From a phage, in the NCBI GenBank assembly GCA_016693855.1, contig GCA_016693855.1_4844.1: a DNA stretch of 45,498 nt. One strand, 5' to 3'. The notes under the pieces were generated by a model, which saw only the letters and a program-made list of their open reading frames with translations, was not told the origin of the DNA and searched no databases. Positions 15,429 through 25,644 of the stretch are shown piece after piece. Numbering within the stretch: the stretch's first letter is position 1; every line of letters begins with the position of its first letter. A program made the position numbers and the translations under genes.

Positions 15429-15850
15429 CCCAAATCAAAAGGCAAGCCAAAATAGAAAAGTGTGGCTTTTTTTAGTTCGTCAAGACCGTAAGCGATGGCA
15501 GCATAATGACCAAGCCTGCACATCTCAGTTAACACAGCGGATTGCTCTTTGCTAACCCTGCTTTTGCTTTTATCGCGGCGCTTTGCTTCAATCATCCCGC
15601 AACTGTGATTTACTCCCGGCGTCATTATCACATTGTCGCCTATTCCAGTCTTAACCCCCATTTTCTGGCGCTTCAGCACAAACTGCACCCTGCTTGATGT
15701 GCCAGTTTCGTTGGGTACATGAAACCACAGAACATCAGGGAAGCGGTGTTGCATCCATGTACCGTAACCCATCTGATCAGTCTCCTCTTTCGGGCATTCT
15801 CCGCGATAACCGCTATCAAATACCCATATGCCGCTATCAAGCTGCTTCAC
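15425..15850 (-). CDS. VRR-NUC domain nuclease
   Basis: 141 aa; …GIGDNVIMTPGVNHSCGMIEAKRRDKSKSRVSKEQ… fits the VRR-NUC (PD-(D/E)xK) pattern of a hydrophobic strand-Asp followed by ExK and a downstream Q. Confidence 0.65.
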   Translation of the reverse strand: MKQLDSGIWVFDSGYRGECPKEETDQMGYGTWMQHRFPDVLWFHVPNETGTSSRVQFVLKRQKMGVKTGIGDNVIMTPGVNHSCGMIEAKRRDKSKSRVSKEQSAVLTEMCRLGHYAAIAYGLDELKKATLFYFGLPFDLG

Positions 15851-17771
15851 TTTGTTCTCCTGTAAAATCTTTTCTGTGGATTATGTCACGGCCTTTATCG
15901 TTGATACGATGCGTGATGCGTTTTGGCGCCTTAATCAATCCCGCATACATCATGAATTGCTTGGCGTTCTGGCATTTCAGGATTTTCCCGGCCATTGACT
16001 TATCATCAAGGTGAGGAAAGATAGCCTTCGCCTTAAACATGTTTTTCATGTGAGTTGCGCCGCCATAAGGGTAGAAAACCTCATTAGCCCATCCTTCTTT
16101 GCCATCACAACGATTAATCCAGTATCGATACAAAACCCCTTCCCCGTCCTTCGTTAACTGAACCTTGAAATCCATAACATCAGCCCACTCATTATCGGTA
16201 TACGCACGCTCATTAAGCGCCGCATTAGGGTCACGCAAAACATGATCGCAATGTCGGCAATAACGCGCAGTAGGGTCGTTTTTAGTACCACATCCATCAT
16301 CAAAAATACGTATTCCATGCTTATCGAAACCGCAACGGATGTAACTGAAAAACTCCTCGCAGCGACCATCTGGAGATACCGGGTCTTTCCCTATGCATCG
16401 ACGCGCATATGGGCTGTTCATTGTTCCACATTTTGGACACGGAACCTGTTCGCCACTGCGTTTTGAACGTTGCGCTTCAGCCTCTTCCAGAATTGGGTCT
16501 TCATACAGCTGACCAAGCTCAAACATCGTGCCTGAGAAATCCAGAACAAGATGGTCTTCTTTATGATACCCTGCATCAATTTGCTCTTTCTTCAGCAGGC
16601 GCATCCCGCGACCAAGCAACTGAACAAGAAGGGTGAGCGACATTATTTTTCTTAATATCACGCTTGTATCCCAAAGCGGGATGTTGACTCCTGTCGTAAG
16701 CGCGGCTATCTGGAATGTGTATTTTATTTTTCCAGTGTATGCATCCTTTAGTGCCTTACGTCTTGCTTTTTTCCCCATATCTTCAGTGACAATGGCGTAG
16801 CTTCCTTCTGGCAGATATTTAGCAGCTTCTAAACAATGCTTCTTGCCTGCACAGGTAATTAACACTCCATTTCTATCTTTTGTAAGCTCCATCACTTTAA
16901 GCATGATTTTCTGTGTGAGAGTGCCTTGTTCAAGTATTTCTTCCTGCATCTGCTTAAGTTGTTCAGCAGTGAAATCCTGCGTTCCGTCAACATCAGAGCC
17001 ATGAAATGATGAAAGGTCGTATTGCAAATCATCAACATCATGAAGTCCAAAGATTGTTGGAACAACAAATCCGCGATCTACCATGTACTTTGTGTCAATG
17101 TTTATTATTTCATTCTTCCAATACGCACCTTTCATTGACTCGGTGCCACGGAAAGGGCTTCCAGTGAATCCGATAGTTATCATGTCATGTCCATACTTTG
17201 CCTTACAGCGCCGATTTAACTCGGTCAGTATAACGCCATACTGTGTTGTTGGTTCACCACCGACAATGTCCTGCCACGGTACTTGGTGCCCTTCATCGCA
17301 AAGGCAAAATCTTGGGGTGAAATCACTCAACCCACCTTTCTTAACGTCACCATTTGATTCATCTTTTTTATCAAAAAGTGCGTTCACGATTGTTCCTTCA
17401 GTGCCGCATATAATAGGATATGCTGTGCTTTTCCTGCCAAGAGATGCACTATAAAGAGAGTTTTTTACACCGCACTCCCACATCATTTCAGCATTCTGCT
17501 CGGCTATTTCCCCCTGCCTTGAAATTACAAGACCATCCCACCACATATCCTGAAATCTACTGCAAAGCATTGAAATCATCACCGTCTTCCCTGATGAAAC
17601 CGACGCTGTAACATAGCTTGGTTCAGGTTTCTTGCCAAAATTACGAATAACCTCAGCGCACTTTGCGTAAACAAGCCATTGGTAATCATATGGCTCTATG
17701 GAGCCTAGTTTTATTGATTTCTTTAATTTATCTATATCAATCTCTGAAATCATCTTGTCTATTTTATGCAT
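15837..17771 (-). CDS. SF2 DNA helicase with C-terminal zinc-ribbon region
   Basis: 644 aa; Walker A-like …ASVSSGKTV…, DExH-like …LCDEGHQ…, and C-terminal Cys clusters CPKCG…C and CRHCDH. Confidence 0.8.
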   Translation of the reverse strand: MHKIDKMISEIDIDKLKKSIKLGSIEPYDYQWLVYAKCAEVIRNFGKKPEPSYVTASVSSGKTVMISMLCSRFQDMWWDGLVISRQGEIAEQNAEMMWECGVKNSLYSASLGRKSTAYPIICGTEGTIVNALFDKKDESNGDVKKGGLSDFTPRFCLCDEGHQVPWQDIVGGEPTTQYGVILTELNRRCKAKYGHDMITIGFTGSPFRGTESMKGAYWKNEIINIDTKYMVDRGFVVPTIFGLHDVDDLQYDLSSFHGSDVDGTQDFTAEQLKQMQEEILEQGTLTQKIMLKVMELTKDRNGVLITCAGKKHCLEAAKYLPEGSYAIVTEDMGKKARRKALKDAYTGKIKYTFQIAALTTGVNIPLWDTSVILRKIMSLTLLVQLLGRGMRLLKKEQIDAGYHKEDHLVLDFSGTMFELGQLYEDPILEEAEAQRSKRSGEQVPCPKCGTMNSPYARRCIGKDPVSPDGRCEEFFSYIRCGFDKHGIRIFDDGCGTKNDPTARYCRHCDHVLRDPNAALNERAYTDNEWADVMDFKVQLTKDGEGVLYRYWINRCDGKEGWANEVFYPYGGATHMKNMFKAKAIFPHLDDKSMAGKILKCQNAKQFMMYAGLIKAPKRITHRINDKGRDIIHRKDFTGEQSEAA

Positions 17772-18292
17772 TATTTTACCCTACCAAATTCACCATGATA
17801 CTTTTTTGATGCTTCTGCATAAACCTTTGCTGCTTCTTCTTTTGTATCATATCTTCCTAGCCATATTTTTTTATTATTTACATGTATAGAGCAAGTCCAT
17901 TTTTTTGTTTGCTTGCAAAAACCAACACCCTTTACACCAGAGGTGTTATGGCTTGGAATCCTCATGTTTCTTAAGTTTCCATTAAAGTTTGTTTCTCTTA
18001 GGTTTTCTATCCTGTTATTCAATCTATTTCCATCTTTATGGTCTATTATTAACTCAGGCCAATAACCATGCACTAAAGCCCATATTATTCTGTGAACCTT
18101 TATATCAACACCTAAAAAACCAACCTGAAGATATCCACTTACAGTCTTCGAACCTGCAATAGCGCCACGTTTAACCCTGTTTGTTGTTGTTCTTTTCCAT
18201 ATGAGATTTATTCCGTCATATGAAAAATACTCCCGCAACGTAGATACTGGTATTGACTTCTCTTTTAACTTCATTAATTCGAAATCATTCAC
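17771..18292 (-). CDS. HNH homing endonuclease with AP2-like DNA-binding domain
   Basis: …HRIIWALVHGYWPELIIDHKDGNRLNNRIENLRE… HNH motif followed by …SGVKGVGFCKQTKKWTCSI…LGRYDTKEEAAKVY… AP2-type domain; free-standing, immediately upstream of the helicase. Confidence 0.85.
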   Translation of the reverse strand: MNDFELMKLKEKSIPVSTLREYFSYDGINLIWKRTTTNRVKRGAIAGSKTVSGYLQVGFLGVDIKVHRIIWALVHGYWPELIIDHKDGNRLNNRIENLRETNFNGNLRNMRIPSHNTSGVKGVGFCKQTKKWTCSIHVNNKKIWLGRYDTKEEAAKVYAEASKKYHGEFGRVK

Positions 18293-18354: not shown

Positions 18355-19305
18355 ATGTTTTATTGGGAAGAGATACAACAAAAGATGATTGGGAATTGGG
18401 AGGCAGCACTATTGTCAATAGTCAACATAGATAGGAAAATTTTTTCTGGAAAACATCAACCATGCCCTCATTGCATGGGTGTTGACCGGTTTCGTTGGGA
18501 TAATCACTTCGAAACAAAAGGAGACGGCGGCGCAATCTGCAATCAGTGCGGTTCCGGCAGCGGCATGAACTGGCTGATGAAACTTTCAGGCATGAACTTC
18601 CCAGAAGCGCTGGAGGCGCTGGGGGGATTCCTGAATATGCACCCGCGTGAAAAGCTGGAGGCAATCAGGAAGGAGTTACCGAAGATAAATCATAATGACG
18701 ACTTCATCACCGAGCAGGAAGTCGCCGCAATCATGGCTAAAACGACGCGTGTCGCGATGAATGAGTGGACGTTGATAAATGGTATTGGTTGCGACATTAA
18801 CGTCGTCAGAGGTAAATCTGGAAGGCTTATTGCGGTTGAGATGATGCGTGCTGACACAATGAAACCGTGCAACGTGGCATTCATTGGCATGGATGGGGAT
18901 GCATTCAGAACATTCTACAAAGCGGGATACAACAAAGACTCAGCAATAAGCGGAAAACTCACGCGCGGCGCGATAAGCCCAATCGGAGAAGATAACGGGA
19001 AGTTCATTTACCTTGTATCTGATTATGCCGACGCGTGGAAATGCCATTACTTCACTGGCGCGCATGTCTGGTGCTGCTGGTCGCCGGAAAACATGTGGGA
19101 AGTAGTGCGTTCTGTCAGCGATGAGACTAAAGCACGGTTACGCTGCATAGTTAATTATAAATTTGACGAACTTTGCGCTGCGGAAAATGCAGGGCTTCCG
19201 GTGATGCTTCCTGATGATGCGGACACGATAAGAATGGCAAAGAGAATCAGGAGAAAGATTTATGACGCTGGCGAGTTGATAGAAAAAATGTCAGTAAGCA
19301 GATAA
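18355..19305 (+). CDS. DNA primase (zinc-binding domain + Toprim-like)
   Basis: N-terminal …CPHCMGVDRFRWDNHFETKGDGGAICNQCG… resembles the zinc-binding domain of P4-alpha/T7-type primases (recalled, not searched); ~316 aa; encoded opposite to the surrounding replication genes. Confidence 0.65.
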   Translation: MFYWEEIQQKMIGNWEAALLSIVNIDRKIFSGKHQPCPHCMGVDRFRWDNHFETKGDGGAICNQCGSGSGMNWLMKLSGMNFPEALEALGGFLNMHPREKLEAIRKELPKINHNDDFITEQEVAAIMAKTTRVAMNEWTLINGIGCDINVVRGKSGRLIAVEMMRADTMKPCNVAFIGMDGDAFRTFYKAGYNKDSAISGKLTRGAISPIGEDNGKFIYLVSDYADAWKCHYFTGAHVWCCWSPENMWEVVRSVSDETKARLRCIVNYKFDELCAAENAGLPVMLPDDADTIRMAKRIRRKIYDAGELIEKMSVSR

Positions 19306-19336
19306 AAGAAACCCTCCGACTGGAGGGTTTTTGTTA
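19306..19336. terminator. bidirectional intrinsic terminator
   Basis: aaagaAACCCTCCgactGGAGGGTTtttgtt between convergent primase (+) and 19337-19801 (-). Confidence 0.85.
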
Positions 19337-19801
19337 TTATGGGACGAGTCCGAGCCTTTTTCTTTCTTCGTAAAGAGCATACTCTGGATTGCCGGTTTTC
19401 TTATAAAGAATCTCCTTCAGCCTCAAAATCTCTTTCGTCGTTGCTGCCGCACCTATAACCATCGTCTCTCCGAACAAGTCAGAATAACTCAATGACTCAA
19501 GCTTCACCATGTCGTTGAAGTAGTCATCTTTTCTCGTCGCATGAAGCGACATCAGATATGGTTTATTTCTCTTATTCTTCACCCAATACACACGGTTAAC
19601 GCCATCAAGATAACCGCAACTCATTGAGCGAGCCACAAACTCTCGTGATAGGCCAAGTGCAAACTCGCCAATATCGACGCCAATTTGTTCAGCCATTCTT
19701 TTGCACTGTGTATTGCCAATTACAAATTTCTCAAGCTGAACCCTTGTGAATGTTGCATTTCCTTCACAGAATTTAAATATTGATGTTTTCATATTTATCA
19801 C
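19337..19801 (-). CDS. hypothetical protein (coupled to upstream P-loop protein gene)
   Basis: 154 aa; start overlaps the stop of the 523-aa gene (ATGA), suggesting translational coupling; no recognisable motif. Confidence 0.5.
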   Translation of the reverse strand: MINMKTSIFKFCEGNATFTRVQLEKFVIGNTQCKRMAEQIGVDIGEFALGLSREFVARSMSCGYLDGVNRVYWVKNKRNKPYLMSLHATRKDDYFNDMVKLESLSYSDLFGETMVIGAAATTKEILRLKEILYKKTGNPEYALYEERKRLGLVP

Positions 19802-21369
19802 CGAATAAGTTCAGGATTGACATACACATTACTGTCAACAACGCATACCATATTCATGGCCTCAAGCTTTGGAAGTAACTGCTCTTTTATTTTCTTCGAA
19901 ATTCCGCCTTGCGCCCTGAATGGCTTAACTTTCCTTGCTTTTTCAAGTACTCTTGACATGCTTACGTAACCCTTAGATTGTCTTGCCAGCTCTATCGTTA
20001 TTTCTGATAGTTTTTTCAGCTCGACTTCCTCACCAGCAGACCCGGATGATGTTGTTGCTGCAACATATGATTCAATTAACTCGCCAAAAATAGCGAGCGC
20101 CTCTTCCGCTGTCTCAGCAGAAATGACCTTTGATTTCTTTTCTCGACCGTCAGGTGAAAACCAATTGCGTATTACGTGAAGTACTGATGCAATCCTTACA
20201 ACCTGCTTATCCATCTTCCCGATCATACCCCTTAGCATTGAATGCCCATAAAGACCGCCATCAGCCATGTGTGGCTCTGCCTGTTGTCTTGCTGAATAAA
20301 TTGCCATTATCGCCTCATGCTCAAGAGACAGAACAACCTTTTCTTCAGTCATAATGTTGTGAATGAGTCTGTAGTATTGAGACATCAACTCTTTATCAAT
20401 TGGTGTATATGCTGGCGTTCCATCGTCATTTATGAACACGCGCTGACCAAGCATTGATTTTTCACGAAGCAGAAGGAATCGCTCACTAACACCATTAGAC
20501 CTTTCACCAACCTGCATGATTGAAAGCACGGTTTCATCCTGAGCTATAACATTTATGCACCCGTTTGCAACAAATGAAAGGTTATTTGAACCGTTAGCTC
20601 GCGCTGAAGAAACGTATTCCATATCCCACGCCTTAAGAACTGTCTCGCAGCTTGCTGTGGAATTGGCATTTGAGTAAGTAAGACCAAGCAATGTATTAAC
20701 AGCGGTAGCCTCAGCAGAAATAACGGCAAATGACCCCTGTAGAGCGTTAAGCCTGCTCAATCCTTCAGGTGTTGAGTCTGTCACAGGGAAAACAATATCA
20801 CCGAGTTTTTCAATCTCGCTTTCCAGTTTTTCCTTATCTTCGTACATGATAGCCAGTGCGGTTTTGTTTTGTTCTGATTTTATCTCCCTCTCAATCTCGC
20901 GCAGCTTGGCCAATTTTCTTTTTCTCTCTTTTCTTCTCACCTCATTAATTCTCTCATTCTCACAAACAAGAGGTGCTGTAGAGTATTGGTTTACGGAACT
21001 CTTCCCTGTCGATGGTGGCTGGCTAATGACAACATACAGTGATGTTGGCTGTTCACTTCCGTGATAGTTAACAAAGAATCGACCAAGCATGGCTGCTGAA
21101 ACGCTTCCTAAAAAATTCAGATATGCAGAAGAAGCTGGAAACTGTATTGATTTGGCAATGTTTCTTGATAGCTTACCTACAACATCAATATCATTACCAA
21201 TGCATACGTTAGTATATCCAGCATCGTTATCATCAAAGTCCTTTGGTGAGTGCCAGTAGTTTTGTGACGCTCCATATCCATTTGCTTCTATCGCAACACT
21301 CAACACAGACCGCTTGCTTTTTGCTGCCATCTCAACAATATCTTCTGGCATTAGCTTTTTCTCAAACAC
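19798..21369 (-). CDS. P-loop NTPase, DUF3987/SF3-helicase-like (putative replication protein)
   Basis: 523 aa; Walker A-like …LYVVISQPPSTGKSSV…; size and P-loop context resemble DUF3987/primase-associated helicase-like proteins of mobile elements; first large gene downstream of the iteron region. Family assignment from memory, unverified. Confidence 0.45.
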   Translation of the reverse strand: MFEKKLMPEDIVEMAAKSKRSVLSVAIEANGYGASQNYWHSPKDFDDNDAGYTNVCIGNDIDVVGKLSRNIAKSIQFPASSAYLNFLGSVSAAMLGRFFVNYHGSEQPTSLYVVISQPPSTGKSSVNQYSTAPLVCENERINEVRRKERKRKLAKLREIEREIKSEQNKTALAIMYEDKEKLESEIEKLGDIVFPVTDSTPEGLSRLNALQGSFAVISAEATAVNTLLGLTYSNANSTASCETVLKAWDMEYVSSARANGSNNLSFVANGCINVIAQDETVLSIMQVGERSNGVSERFLLLREKSMLGQRVFINDDGTPAYTPIDKELMSQYYRLIHNIMTEEKVVLSLEHEAIMAIYSARQQAEPHMADGGLYGHSMLRGMIGKMDKQVVRIASVLHVIRNWFSPDGREKKSKVISAETAEEALAIFGELIESYVAATTSSGSAGEEVELKKLSEITIELARQSKGYVSMSRVLEKARKVKPFRAQGGISKKIKEQLLPKLEAMNMVCVVDSNVYVNPELIR

Positions 21370-21379
21370 AGAGCACTCC

Positions 21380-21601
21380 TTATTTGATGCGGGTAATTTT
21401 CAATTCGCCTTCGCGCAGGCGAGTAACAAACATTAACGAGTGATCGTTTGCTGCTTTATTCAGTGCAGCTCTCACACCTGCAACAGTCATGCTCCTTTCT
21501 GATATTTCACCTAACGTAATAACGCATTCTCCACCAACATCCACGAAGCGAACTTTATCCCATACAAATTTCATGCTTGAGCCTGCGCGGTAATCTTTCA
21601 T
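21380..21601 (-). CDS. hypothetical small protein (first gene of leftward early operon)
   Basis: 73 aa ORF immediately leftward of the iteron-rich control region; no motif recognised. Confidence 0.45.
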   Translation of the reverse strand: MKDYRAGSSMKFVWDKVRFVDVGGECVITLGEISERSMTVAGVRAALNKAANDHSLMFVTRLREGELKITRIK

Positions 21602-21793
21602 GTCAAATCCTCATTCTGGAATCTGTATATTACTATATAGAAAGCAATGGAGAACTTCAATACCGCTGCTCTTAAATCACAAAGGTAATGGATAGCACAA
21701 ATTGCTAAAATCTATGCTACCTGTTTATTCGTTTCGTGGTATATTTCAGTCATCAACACGCAAGTGCTTGACAGTTAAAAGAAAAATCAAAAA

Positions 21794-22237
21794 TCCCGCC
21801 CAAAAGCCCTGAAAAATGGGGCGAAACATTCCAGATAAAAATCAATAAGTTACAAAATCTTCGCCCATTATCGCCCAAAAGAAGGGCGAAACATTTCTAT
21901 TTAAATTCAACAACTTAAACGATTTTCGCCCATTTTTAAGTTGTGGGGGTATATATGCATTGTGTAAGAGAGAAAAATAGTAGGTATGAAATGAATGTGT
22001 ATAGGGGTATGGGCAAAATGGGCGAAATGTATGATATGAGCGAAAACGAACATAGTTAGTAAGTATGATATATAGGTATGAGTAAATATAAATAACTAAT
22101 AATATTAATAACTTACATATATATATTACTTATTATTACTTATTATCTATAAGAGAAAACCGCTCAAAAAATGAGCAAAATTTTCGCCCACAATTTAGGG
22201 CGAACATAGGGCGAAGATGGGCAAGAGTGGGCGGAAC
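21794..22237. repeat. iteron array (GGGCGAA / TTCGCCC, >10 copies) flanking an AT-rich core; candidate origin / early control region
   Basis: Direct reading: ATGGGGCGAAAC (21816), GGGCGAAAC (21884), GGGCAAAATGGGCGAAATG (22011), GGGCGAACATAGGGCGAAGATGGGCAAGAGTGGGCGGAAC (22198-22237) in forward orientation; TTCGCCCATT (21860), TCGCCCAAAA (21871), TTTTCGCCCATTTT (21924), TTTTCGCCCACAA (22181) in reverse; AT-rich segment ~22050-22160 with tandem TACTTATTAT repeat; no ORF >=60 aa in 21601-22264. Confidence 0.6.
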
Positions 22238-22268
22238 GGCAAAATCATTGCGACACCTGAAAATCACA

Positions 22269-22297
22269 TTGACGTAGAATTGTTATTGATGTAGATT
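22269..22297 (+). promoter_or_regulatory. early rightward promoter: TTGACG-N17-TAGATT built from two tandem TTGAYGTAGAWT motif copies
   Basis: TTGACGTAGAAT at 22269-22280 and TTGATGTAGATT at 22286-22297; the TTGACG of copy 1 and TAGATT of copy 2 are spaced 17 nt apart like sigma70 -35/-10 elements; ~30 nt upstream of the first rightward ORF. Confidence 0.5.
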
Positions 22298-24284: not shown

Positions 24285-24593
24285 CGATATTAGCGACGCA
24301 ATGCAAAACATGTGGGAGCGCTATTGGGACAGCATGAAGACATGTCACTACATGATGGTGCAGATAGGCAATTACATTGAGGTTATTCCTGATAATGGTG
24401 TGCATGATATTAAATACATGTGCTCAACTAGGGCTTTCTCTAATGCAGACAACTAAACAGAAAGTTTGGGGAGTTGCTAAGGAGGAAAACTTAGACCAGT
24501 TCATTGCAGCAGTTGCAAAAACATTCCCCGAAGCAATTGAGATTGTCCACATTCAGTCGCCACGCAACGATGTGTGGTGTTGGAGTAATAAAA

Positions 24594-25082
24594 ATGACGA
24601 AAGAAAGAGATTGGAATGAGGTCTTTGAATATATAGATGGGCGCTTAATTTGGAAGATCAAACCTTGCAATAACGTAAAAGAATACTCACCAGCTGGGTC
24701 AACGCGAAACGATGGCTACCTGCATGTTGGTTTTATGAAAAAACTACATATGGTTCATAGAATTATATGGGAAATGCATAACGGAAAAATACCAGATGGG
24801 ATGGAGATTGACCATGTAAACCATAACAAAATGGACAACAGAATTGAGAATTTGCGGCTTGTTCGGCACGGAAGCAACCAAAGGAATAAATCTAAACAGG
24901 GGAATAACACTAGTGGTGTGACTGGTGTAACATGGAGCAGAAGGGATAAAAAGTGGATTGCGCAGATAATGGTTGAAAGAAAAAACATCCATCTTGGATA
25001 CTTCAGTGACTTCAACTCCGCAGTGGCGGCAAGGAAAAATGCGGAAAAAGAGCATCGCTTTCACAAGAACCATGGTATATAA
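24594..25082 (+). CDS. HNH homing endonuclease with AP2-like domain
   Basis: …HRIIWEMHNGKIPDGMEIDHVNHNKMDNRIENLRLV… HNH motif; …SGVTGVTWSRRDKKWIAQI…LGYFSDFNSAVAARKNAE… AP2-type domain; close paralog of the ORF at 28588-29064. Confidence 0.85.
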   Translation: MTKERDWNEVFEYIDGRLIWKIKPCNNVKEYSPAGSTRNDGYLHVGFMKKLHMVHRIIWEMHNGKIPDGMEIDHVNHNKMDNRIENLRLVRHGSNQRNKSKQGNNTSGVTGVTWSRRDKKWIAQIMVERKNIHLGYFSDFNSAVAARKNAEKEHRFHKNHGI

Positions 25083-25197: not shown

Positions 25198-25644
25198 ATG
25201 GCTAATCCAAACCCTGTCATGAAATTTTCCTCTGAGTACCAGCCTGCTGGCAGAGGATTAAGCTACAGAAACAGGCTTATTGAAGCATTAAAGCGATGCG
25301 GGCTTGGCGAGGAGGAATTCCTTGACGCATTCATCAGGACGTCAATCAGGATGACTGAGGAAAACCCGACTCAGGGTGTGCAAATGCTGAAGGAAATATT
25401 CCTGCGCATCAGCCCTGTGCAAAAAAGTATGGCACCTCCGGTTAATTTTAAATACCGCAAAGATGCCACGCCAGTAGAGCAGATAGAGGACGTCATTCAA
25501 TCTGTCTCCAGTGGCGAGCTTCCAATTGATGTTGCGTCTCAGGTTGTGTCTATGATTAAGGTTGGTCTTGACGTGAAAGAATTAACCGAACTCGCCGCGC
25601 GCCTTGAGCGACTAGAGAAATTACTGGAGCAGCAGAATGCGTGA
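25198..25644 (+). CDS. terminase small subunit (putative, by position)
   Basis: 148 aa ORF directly upstream of the terminase large subunit gene; no confident motif. Confidence 0.35.
   Translation: MANPNPVMKFSSEYQPAGRGLSYRNRLIEALKRCGLGEEEFLDAFIRTSIRMTEENPTQGVQMLKEIFLRISPVQKSMAPPVNFKYRKDATPVEQIEDVIQSVSSGELPIDVASQVVSMIKVGLDVKELTELAARLERLEKLLEQQNA

Follow-up and report, generated by a model that had tools for sequence, protein, structure and literature searches.

A DUF3987 helicase gene and an adjoining repeat field, a candidate replication origin, form an exchangeable cassette in a Swiduovirus-like phage

T1 is a classical coliphage, and Drexlerviridae-like phages are among the commonest enterobacterial isolates, including therapeutic candidates. 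In the literature searched, the origin and the initiator of T1-like phages are treated as undefined, and nothing usable was found that links the T1 helicase gp9 to the old T1 DNA-negative genes 1 and 2. The T1-like phages are reported to lack a DNA polymerase, and a 2024 re-annotation of the T1-like phage TLS found no iterons and listed a superfamily 2 (SF2) helicase and a primase as the only replication proteins (PMC11447400). Phage DUF3987 proteins have been placed in helicase superfamily 6 (SF6), with their C-terminal winged helix and association with primases noted, and have been proposed as replicative helicases (Kazlauskas et al., 2016, PMC4889955). For AgaPH, a PriCT-DUF3987 protein from a mobile element with a pAgo, both ATP-dependent 5'-3' helicase activity and binding to its primase have been demonstrated (PMC11724360). 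The present analysis concerns a phage contig of 45,498 nucleotides (GCA_016693855.1_4844.1 of assembly GCA_016693855.1), referred to in its full length as the window, in which a gene for a DUF3987 protein of 523 amino acids (aa) and a small partner gene behind it lie beside a field of short repeats.

The helicase family, its predicted role and its relationship to MCM are already published, and the gene pair is the gp9/gp10 pair of T1 (ST9, 'DNA helicase', and ST10, hypothetical). The window locus resembles T1 and its Drexlerviridae homologues in full-length homology, in gene order and in the spacing of 3-5 nucleotides (nt) between the two genes, and it shares with T1 the companions of the pair, namely a P4-alpha-type primase, an SF2 helicase and Erf, ExoVIII and SSB proteins. 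It differs in that a single 73-aa gene stands between the helicase gene and the repeat field, whereas T1 has about eight small genes there; in addition, the Walker B aspartate is replaced by alanine and the partner carries an extra tail of 40 aa. What is new here is the delimitation of a cassette with exact borders, the finding that the repeats follow the helicase, and the description of the partner as a predicted winged-helix protein with a conserved peptide. The reading favoured, at a probability of roughly 0.6, is that the 523-aa protein is a DUF3987 replicative ring helicase with an origin of its own, which it probably recognises, accompanied by a lineage-specific accessory protein.

The cassette spans 2.9 kb (19339..22268) and comprises the partner gene, the helicase gene, the 73-aa gene and the iteron/AT-rich field. 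Its borders come from blastn comparison of the window with Swiduovirus swi2, Deseoctovirus DS8 and Segzyvirus LPSTLL. The flanks are 86-92% identical to these phages, homology stops at 19338/19339 and resumes at 22268/22269, and there is not a single match between. Because the same sharp borders are seen against all three phages, the block has been replaced as a unit. Together with SeSz-2, these phages show about 88% identity to the window phage across 57% of a 25-kb stretch, and the window phage lies outside the Drexlerviridae, grouped with Swiduovirus/Deseoctovirus/Segzyvirus-like phages.

Each relative fills the slot differently. In swi2 it holds an upstream protein of 92 aa, a 542-aa protein without a Pfam domain (unrelated to the window helicase by BLASTP, with a weak match to PHROG 3022), a downstream protein of 63 aa and repeats of the type TCCGGTAACT. 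LPSTLL carries an upstream protein of 88 aa, a 495-aa protein of PHROG 33132, downstream proteins of 119 aa and 136 aa, and different repeats. In DS8 an upstream 90-aa AP2-domain protein, a DUF3987 helicase 34% identical to that of the window and a downstream 138-aa ASCH/DUF3850 protein accompany the repeats CGTGGGGCA. KE08 has the same cassette type as the window, with a helicase 70% identical, a partner 59% identical, a 73-aa upstream open reading frame (ORF) 36% identical and the repeats GGGCAT/GTGGGCAC; its flanks match those of the window at about 90%, its cassette is 69% identical over 19349-21201, and no match is found from 21201 to 22269. KE08 (L001 8032-9144) also has a T1 gp16-like 'DNA repair exonuclease' gene between partner and primase, which the window lacks, its partner gene adjoining the terminator. 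The swapping of an origin with its cognate replication protein or proteins at sharp borders is likewise seen in the lambdoid O-P-ori modules. In lambda, however, the O gene contains the iterons and DnaB of the host serves as the helicase, whereas in the window the iterons are intergenic and the helicase is encoded by the phage.

The iteron field (21795..22235) holds at least 13 sites that read (T)GGGCGA(A) or depart from it by one mismatch, in both orientations and in two clusters. The GGGCGAA iteron region of the first-pass annotation is borne out, as eight of the 14 exact copies in the window lie within 21819-22215 and none of 100 shuffled sequences reached 14 copies. Between the clusters is an AT-rich core (22057..22145) with palindromic TATATA and TAATAA runs and the inverted repeats I1-I3 and I7, a candidate DNA-unwinding element. 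KE08, DS8, MK54, LPSTLL and T1 each have an equivalent AT-rich core. The window iterons are kept in the loci L009 and L010, and KE08 has its GGGCAT/GTGGGCAC repeats at positions equivalent to GGGCGA of the window. In every version of the cassette, repeats in both orientations flank a strongly AT-rich, partly palindromic core. The cumulative GC-skew reaches its minimum at about 21-22 kb. In T1 (L002), the divergent intergenic region at the genome ends (48674-48836 and 1-539) contains three copies of GTTAATCGT, two of GGCGTAATTT and also GCGTAATCG around a long AT-rich core, and this region is a candidate for the T1 origin.

The question of which protein goes with the repeats could be approached with DS8 (L017) and MK54 (L011). 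Their helicases are 87% identical and their repeat/AT-rich DNA is homologous (74% at the nucleotide level), with the same repeat type (CGTGGGGCAGG / GTGGGGAAGG), while the ORF immediately before the helicase and the one immediately after it are unrelated between the two phages (18% and 14% identity). In blastn, the origin DNA and the precise extent of the helicase ORF match, and neither of the small ORFs does; these encode the 90-aa AP2 and 138-aa ASCH proteins in DS8 and proteins of 77 aa and 98 aa in MK54. Linkage alone is insufficient as an explanation for this pair, since the gene between repeats and helicase has been replaced while both its neighbours were kept, and the two slots that flank the helicase look like hot spots of gene replacement. 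Similarly, the locus L008 combines GGGCG-type repeats with a helicase 86% identical to that of the window, while its 73-aa protein and its partner are 44% and 51% identical. In KE08, where the helicase is 70% identical, the repeats have changed. Over the cassette borders, the DS8/MK54 pair and the terminase genes described below, the repeats change in step with the helicase rather than with other genes in these genome comparisons, and the helicase is favoured as the protein that would be matched to them. The first-pass suggestion of an initiator or origin helicase tied to the iterons gains comparative support from the exchangeable block and from DS8/MK54, and the iterons do not go with the packaging genes.

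A division of labour in the manner of lambda O and P, in which the 73-aa or the 151-aa protein binds the iterons and recruits or loads the DUF3987 helicase as a motor only, is the best placed of the alternatives, though an unlikely one. The 151-aa protein has a confidently predicted winged-helix fold, of a type used by many iteron-binding initiators, but a C-terminal winged helix is already predicted in the helicase itself. The gene is co-transcribed with the helicase gene, packed tightly behind it and conserved with it across the Drexlerviridae, and DS8 has an AP2-type DNA-binding protein in its upstream slot; yet DS8 and MK54 share the iteron type and 87% identical helicases although both small ORFs have been replaced by unrelated genes. 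Likewise, of the cassette proteins it is the 73-aa one that differs most between the window and KE08 (36% identity), a phage with different iterons, but L008 has GGGCG-type iterons despite identities of 44% for this protein and 51% for the partner, and in T1 and its close relatives about eight small genes lie between repeat field and helicase, with no homologue of the 73-aa protein detectable.

The terminase genes served as a control. The candidate for the small terminase (25198-25644; 148 aa), named by its position just upstream of TerL and assigned to PHROG 9747 'unknown function', is 98-99% identical to its counterparts in DS8 and LPSTLL, 94% to that of KE08 and 43% to that of swi2. TerL is 97-99% identical to swi2 and DS8 (99% for DS8) and only 62% identical to KE08, which indicates that the packaging module is mosaic too. 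The reading of the repeats as a pac site was rejected, as the terminase genes are near-identical in phages with entirely different repeats.

Less probable than the lambda-like scheme is that the repeat field is a regulatory region of divergent early promoters, composed of operator or activator sites to which a regulator from the cassette would bind, or another cis site, the helicase being unconnected with it (a replisome or repair protein) and the cassette merely a unit of recombination. The field is indeed flanked by two divergent promoter-like sites. The leftward operon has a sigma-70-like candidate, TTGAAG-17-TATAGT (21632..21660, minus strand), which is weak, the regional count of matches in the consensus scan being not above chance. 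The rightward site, TTGACG-17-TAGATT (22269..22297, plus strand), whose -35 hexamer opens the conserved right flank at 22269, is common to the window, swi2, DS8, LPSTLL and KE08. The repeats, however, lie between these sites without overlapping them, and the conserved rightward promoter is outside the cassette and common to phages with different repeats. The small winged-helix protein and the 73-aa protein could each be a transcription factor, and the GC-skew minimum at about 21-22 kb is explained equally well by the switch in gene orientation; against this, the layout of repeats, AT-rich core and repeats recurs in every cassette type and the repeat sequence changes together with the helicase, while the pac-site version is contradicted by the near-identical terminase genes. 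It is very improbable that the gene pair is accessory cargo, whether for defence or anti-defence or as a selfish element, with no part in replication. DUF3987 genes are often found in integrative elements, satellites and pAgo islands, and two HNH-AP2 homing endonuclease genes lie nearby (17771-18292 and 24504-25082), but in about 900 virulent T1-like phages, T1 included, the position of the pair is conserved, always within the replication/recombination block and beside a primase without its own helicase, with neither an integrase nor element borders at the locus and no other ring-helicase candidate in the phage. The mobile-element cargo that the first-pass annotation had kept as an alternative was accordingly given up for this copy, a positionally conserved gene with about 920 phage records.

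The helicase gene (19798..21369, minus strand) runs from a GTG start to a TGA stop at 19800-19798. Its product matches Pfam DUF3987 (PF13148) at 128.1 bits, the cutoff being 27 (aa 78-434 of the protein, positions 3-357 of the 364 in the profile), and PHROG 2373 'DNA helicase' from end to end (E 2.7e-184; aa 3-522). BLASTP with T1 ST9 gives 47% identity over 518 aa (E 4e-169). By tblastn, homologues of the helicase are found in 920 phage records, mostly of Klebsiella (Webervirus) and Escherichia Drexlerviridae, and homologues of the partner in 830. Since each has hundreds of homologues, both predicted genes are real and not chance ORFs. Megablast of 19337-21369 against the phage collection returned no match, homology to phages being seen at the protein level only, and close copies of this segment occur in metagenome and Logan contigs.

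The AlphaFold2 (AF2) model of the 523-aa protein, with a predicted local distance difference test (pLDDT) score of 89.8, shows an N-terminal three-helix domain (aa 8-38), an AAA+ core (aa 97-310) in which Walker A is followed by an inserted helical hairpin of 65 aa (aa 123-188), a lid (aa 326-442) and a predicted C-terminal winged helix (aa 447-522; 19804..20031, minus strand), the candidate iteron-reading domain. The core is closest to MCM, with a beta-hairpin ahead of the sensor-1 strand (VIAQDET) in model and alignment, and the protein as modelled is an MCM-like (SF6) AAA+ protein. The superfamily 3 (SF3) label was rejected, as the protein shows neither the combination of SF3 motifs A, B, B' and C with an SF3-type fold nor a match to an SF3 Pfam family. 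Of the 'DUF3987/SF3-like' call the first half therefore stands; 'SF3-like' is imprecise because the published placement of DUF3987 in SF6 and the data on the PriCT-DUF3987 helicase agree with this protein. The gene should be annotated as a DUF3987/MCM-like replicative helicase rather than as an SF3 helicase. Profile searches of PDB sequences with the helicase and with the partner gave nothing significant, neither protein has an NCBIfam match, and Pfam scans up to E 10 with the isolated N-terminal domain, the C-terminal winged helix and the partner core gave nothing useful.

The reported P-loop string VISQPPSTGKSSV is present at aa 114-126, and within it the Walker A motif QPPSTGKS (aa 117-124; 20998..21021, minus strand) was scored as agreeing with GxxxxGK[ST]. 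In an alignment of 54 homologues G122, K123 and S124 are invariant, and the first glycine of Walker A is glutamine family-wide. The Walker B strand FAVISAE (aa 214-220; 20710..20730, minus strand; strand 214-218 in the model) departs from the canonical hhhhDE. Its aspartate is Ala219 in the clade of the window and KE08 (the window protein, P0002, P0004 and P0005) and, independently, in P0117, whereas about 90% of homologues read ISDE; Glu220 is invariant. The helicase is assumed to be active because the remainder of the active site is conserved. The invariant R297 lies in the motif S-E-R297-F, just ahead of strand beta-5 (298-302 in the model), and S295-E296-R297 (20479..20487, minus strand) is a candidate arginine finger at the position of the MCM 'SRF'-like finger.

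Two characterised groups help to place the protein. It shares with AgaPH the Pfam family, the Walker A and B motifs, a separate primase and a small C-terminal domain. AgaPH, however, has an N-terminal PriCT domain and an AEP-type primase-polymerase as partner, whereas the window protein has an unrelated N-terminal helical domain without a Pfam match and a Toprim/Zn-ribbon primase as partner; the 5'-3' polarity and the ATPase activity are shown for AgaPH only. Compared with the MCM/SF6 helicases, including SCCmec Cch, the window protein lacks the MCM N-terminal OB/Zn domain and has the 65-aa hairpin after Walker A, sequence identity is 11-16%, and the polarity may be opposite to that of MCM.

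The partner gene (19337..19792, minus strand) encodes 151 aa from an ATG at 19792, or 154 aa (19337-19801) from a GTG at 19801. The former is the better call because the copies in databases are mostly 150-151 aa. This ATG sits 5 nt past the helicase stop, behind a GGTGAT complementary to the 16S rRNA 3' end, whereas the alternative GTG overlaps the helicase TGA as GTGA; an ATGA coupling of the two genes, as first described, is absent. The spacing is equally tight, 3-5 nt, in T1, KE08, e4/1c and metagenomic copies. The protein belongs to PHROG 2794 (function unknown; E 2.2e-28) and is 37% identical to T1 ST10. It directly follows the helicase in 10 of 10 T1-type loci inspected, including KE08, T1, KLPN5, e4/1c, BEK2, 26020V, L008, L009 and L010, and the tblastn matches of both proteins are likewise adjacent in Webervirus KLPPOU149. 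In the DS8/MK54 clade and in more distant DUF3987 relatives other genes occupy this slot, and hence the partner is not universal to DUF3987 helicases. The linkage of the two genes, taken earlier as something to be checked in relatives, is stable in the T1-type clade and absent from the DS8/MK54 clade.

The partner had been described as lacking a recognisable motif. This holds for Pfam and NCBIfam, in which no domain was found, but the protein is a member of PHROG 2794 with a winged-helix topology in its predicted fold (aa 1-72). The conserved core of the family is about 110 aa and is followed in the window clade by a specific helical tail (aa 119-146). A conserved D103-x-x-L106-F107 motif appears across the family as YSDLF, DDDLF, EDLF, DQLF or DELF. 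Its reading as a beta-clamp motif, QL[SD]LF, was rejected, as Q at position 1 and L at position 2 are missing and only the L-F pair is common. An exhaustive HMMER search of 1.84 billion representative proteins with the partner profile gave only 21 clusters, all of short proteins and none with a fusion, and the family is therefore narrow. In a Foldseek search of viral models, the partner matches the 'replicative helicase' of LPSTLL over the C-terminal part of the latter (E 3e-3), and hhalign gives a weak match to aa 423-467 of the same protein, which suggests that the partner resembles a free-standing C-terminal winged helix of a helicase. With hhalign, no homology was found between the partner profile and the downstream proteins of MK54, AsC4_1 and swi2, the sole shared feature being the peptide DDELF in MK54. 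The 98-aa protein of MK54 (L011 5051-5347), otherwise unrelated to the partner, ends in WPDDELFSEDLY, the acidic D-D-E-L-F peptide that is conserved among T1 gp10 homologues, whether by chance or through possible convergence on a single docking site. On its predicted fold, the product of the small gene merits annotation as a winged-helix protein of the T1 gp10 family.

The 73-aa gene (21380..21601, minus strand; PHROG 28700, function unknown) is the first of the leftward operon, a place that the first-pass annotation had given to the helicase gene. It is fast-evolving, with matches in only 10 phage records. ORFs of about 70 aa beside even distant DUF3987 helicases share a C-terminus of the form ..(I/V)x(V/I)xR(I/V)K and otherwise no detectable similarity; for example, the window protein ends in KITRIK and those of L013, L014 and L016 in TVIRVK, WVKRIK and WVKRVK, L011 also being among the loci compared. 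Between the repeat field and the leftward promoter candidate there is a 13-bp stem-loop, GGTAGCATAGATTTTAGCAATTTGTGCTATC (21691-21721, minus strand), and a similar hairpin, 'TAGCA...TTTTGCTA', is found at the same relative position in T1, e4/1c, BEK2 and KE08. At the left border of the cassette, a bidirectional terminator-like hairpin (19307..19332, both strands; a stem of 9-11 bp followed by a T-run) separates the primase gene (plus strand) from the partner gene (minus strand).

The separate SF2 helicase (15837-17771) and Zn-ribbon (Toprim/Zn-ribbon) primase (18355-19305, plus strand) are present as reported, both distinct from the 523-aa protein. The three NTPase/primase genes are thus real, but they are nothing unusual, corresponding to the standard T1 set of gp22 (SF2 helicase), gp24 (primase) and gp9 (DUF3987). 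The large ORFs of the window are structural and packaging genes together with SSB, Erf, ExoVIII, the SF2 helicase and the primase, and no DNA polymerase was found among them. The primase has no helicase domain of its own, as its match is limited to the N-terminal half of P4-alpha-type primase-helicase profiles (positions 13-348 of 667 in PHROG 510), and the 523-aa protein is the only ring-helicase candidate in the phage. The phage SSB (13266-13769, minus strand) ends in MDFDDNIPF, a near copy of the C-terminal docking tip of the host SSB. One HNH-AP2 homing endonuclease gene (17771-18292, minus strand) is inserted between the SF2 helicase and the primase, where relatives have different HNH genes, and the second HNH-AP2 gene in the window is at 24504-25082 (plus strand).

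On the favoured reading of a replicative helicase with its own origin, the 523-aa protein would recognise the GGGCGA iterons through its C-terminal winged helix, its N-terminal helical domain or both, assemble as one or more rings on the origin, melt the AT-rich core and unwind. It would then recruit the primase, and the host polymerase would replicate the DNA; helicase, primase and host polymerase would make up the replisome, because no polymerase is encoded among the large ORFs and the primase is without a helicase domain. Such a protein would join SV40 large T antigen, papillomavirus E1 and P4 alpha as an initiator-helicase. The likeness is one of function: an AAA+ protein with an attached DNA-binding domain, and repeats in both orientations flanking an AT-rich element. 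These proteins are, however, SF3 helicases with different origin-binding domains, and although the N-terminal half of the P4-alpha-type proteins is homologous to the window primase, primase and helicase are separate genes in the window. The 151-aa protein would be an accessory specific to the T1 clade, encoded on the same transcript and made right after the helicase, which may stabilise the origin complex or dock the helicase/origin complex to DNA or to another replisome protein via the acidic D-x-x-L-F peptide.

Several points weigh against this scheme. The case for an initiator-helicase is built on comparison, for the 523-aa protein as for T1 gp9, and an origin function of the repeat field is suggested by its architecture only. 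The co-inheritance of iterons and helicase is partly linkage, as they are physically close, and the only pair that breaks this linkage, DS8/MK54, is a single case from a sister clade and not from that of the window. Identities calculated per domain (window, KE08, L008 and L009; DS8 and MK54) single out no helicase domain as tracking the iterons. Loss of the Walker B aspartate weakens Mg-ATP handling in most AAA+ proteins, and with Ala219 at this position the ATPase activity is an assumption. The characterised DUF3987 helicase moves 5'-3' and MCM 3'-5', so the MCM mechanism is not simply transferable. Finally, the role given to the partner is a guess, as its family is narrow, has neither distant relatives nor fusions and is absent from the DS8/MK54 clade.

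A more detailed version is offered tentatively, with distinctly less confidence than the general one. According to it, T1-like and Swiduovirus-type phages would share a plug-in origin cassette, in which the DUF3987 helicase reads its own repeats and self-loads at the AT-rich element with a Walker B motif lacking the aspartate, while the winged-helix accessory of the gp10 family recruits a host or phage replisome component through a D-x-x-L-F peptide resembling the tail of SSB. The proposal is testable: the origin would be the 0.45-kb repeat/AT-rich field and its cognate initiator the gp9-type helicase, the two being swapped together between phages, and the partner and the Walker B Asp-to-Ala variant are targets for simple biochemistry. 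If true, bacterial viruses would have in this helicase a counterpart, with an SF6 motor instead of SF3, to the initiator-helicases of eukaryotic viruses; the partner would be a new type of helicase accessory, and for the classical T1 group of phages the origin and initiator, so long missing, would be defined.

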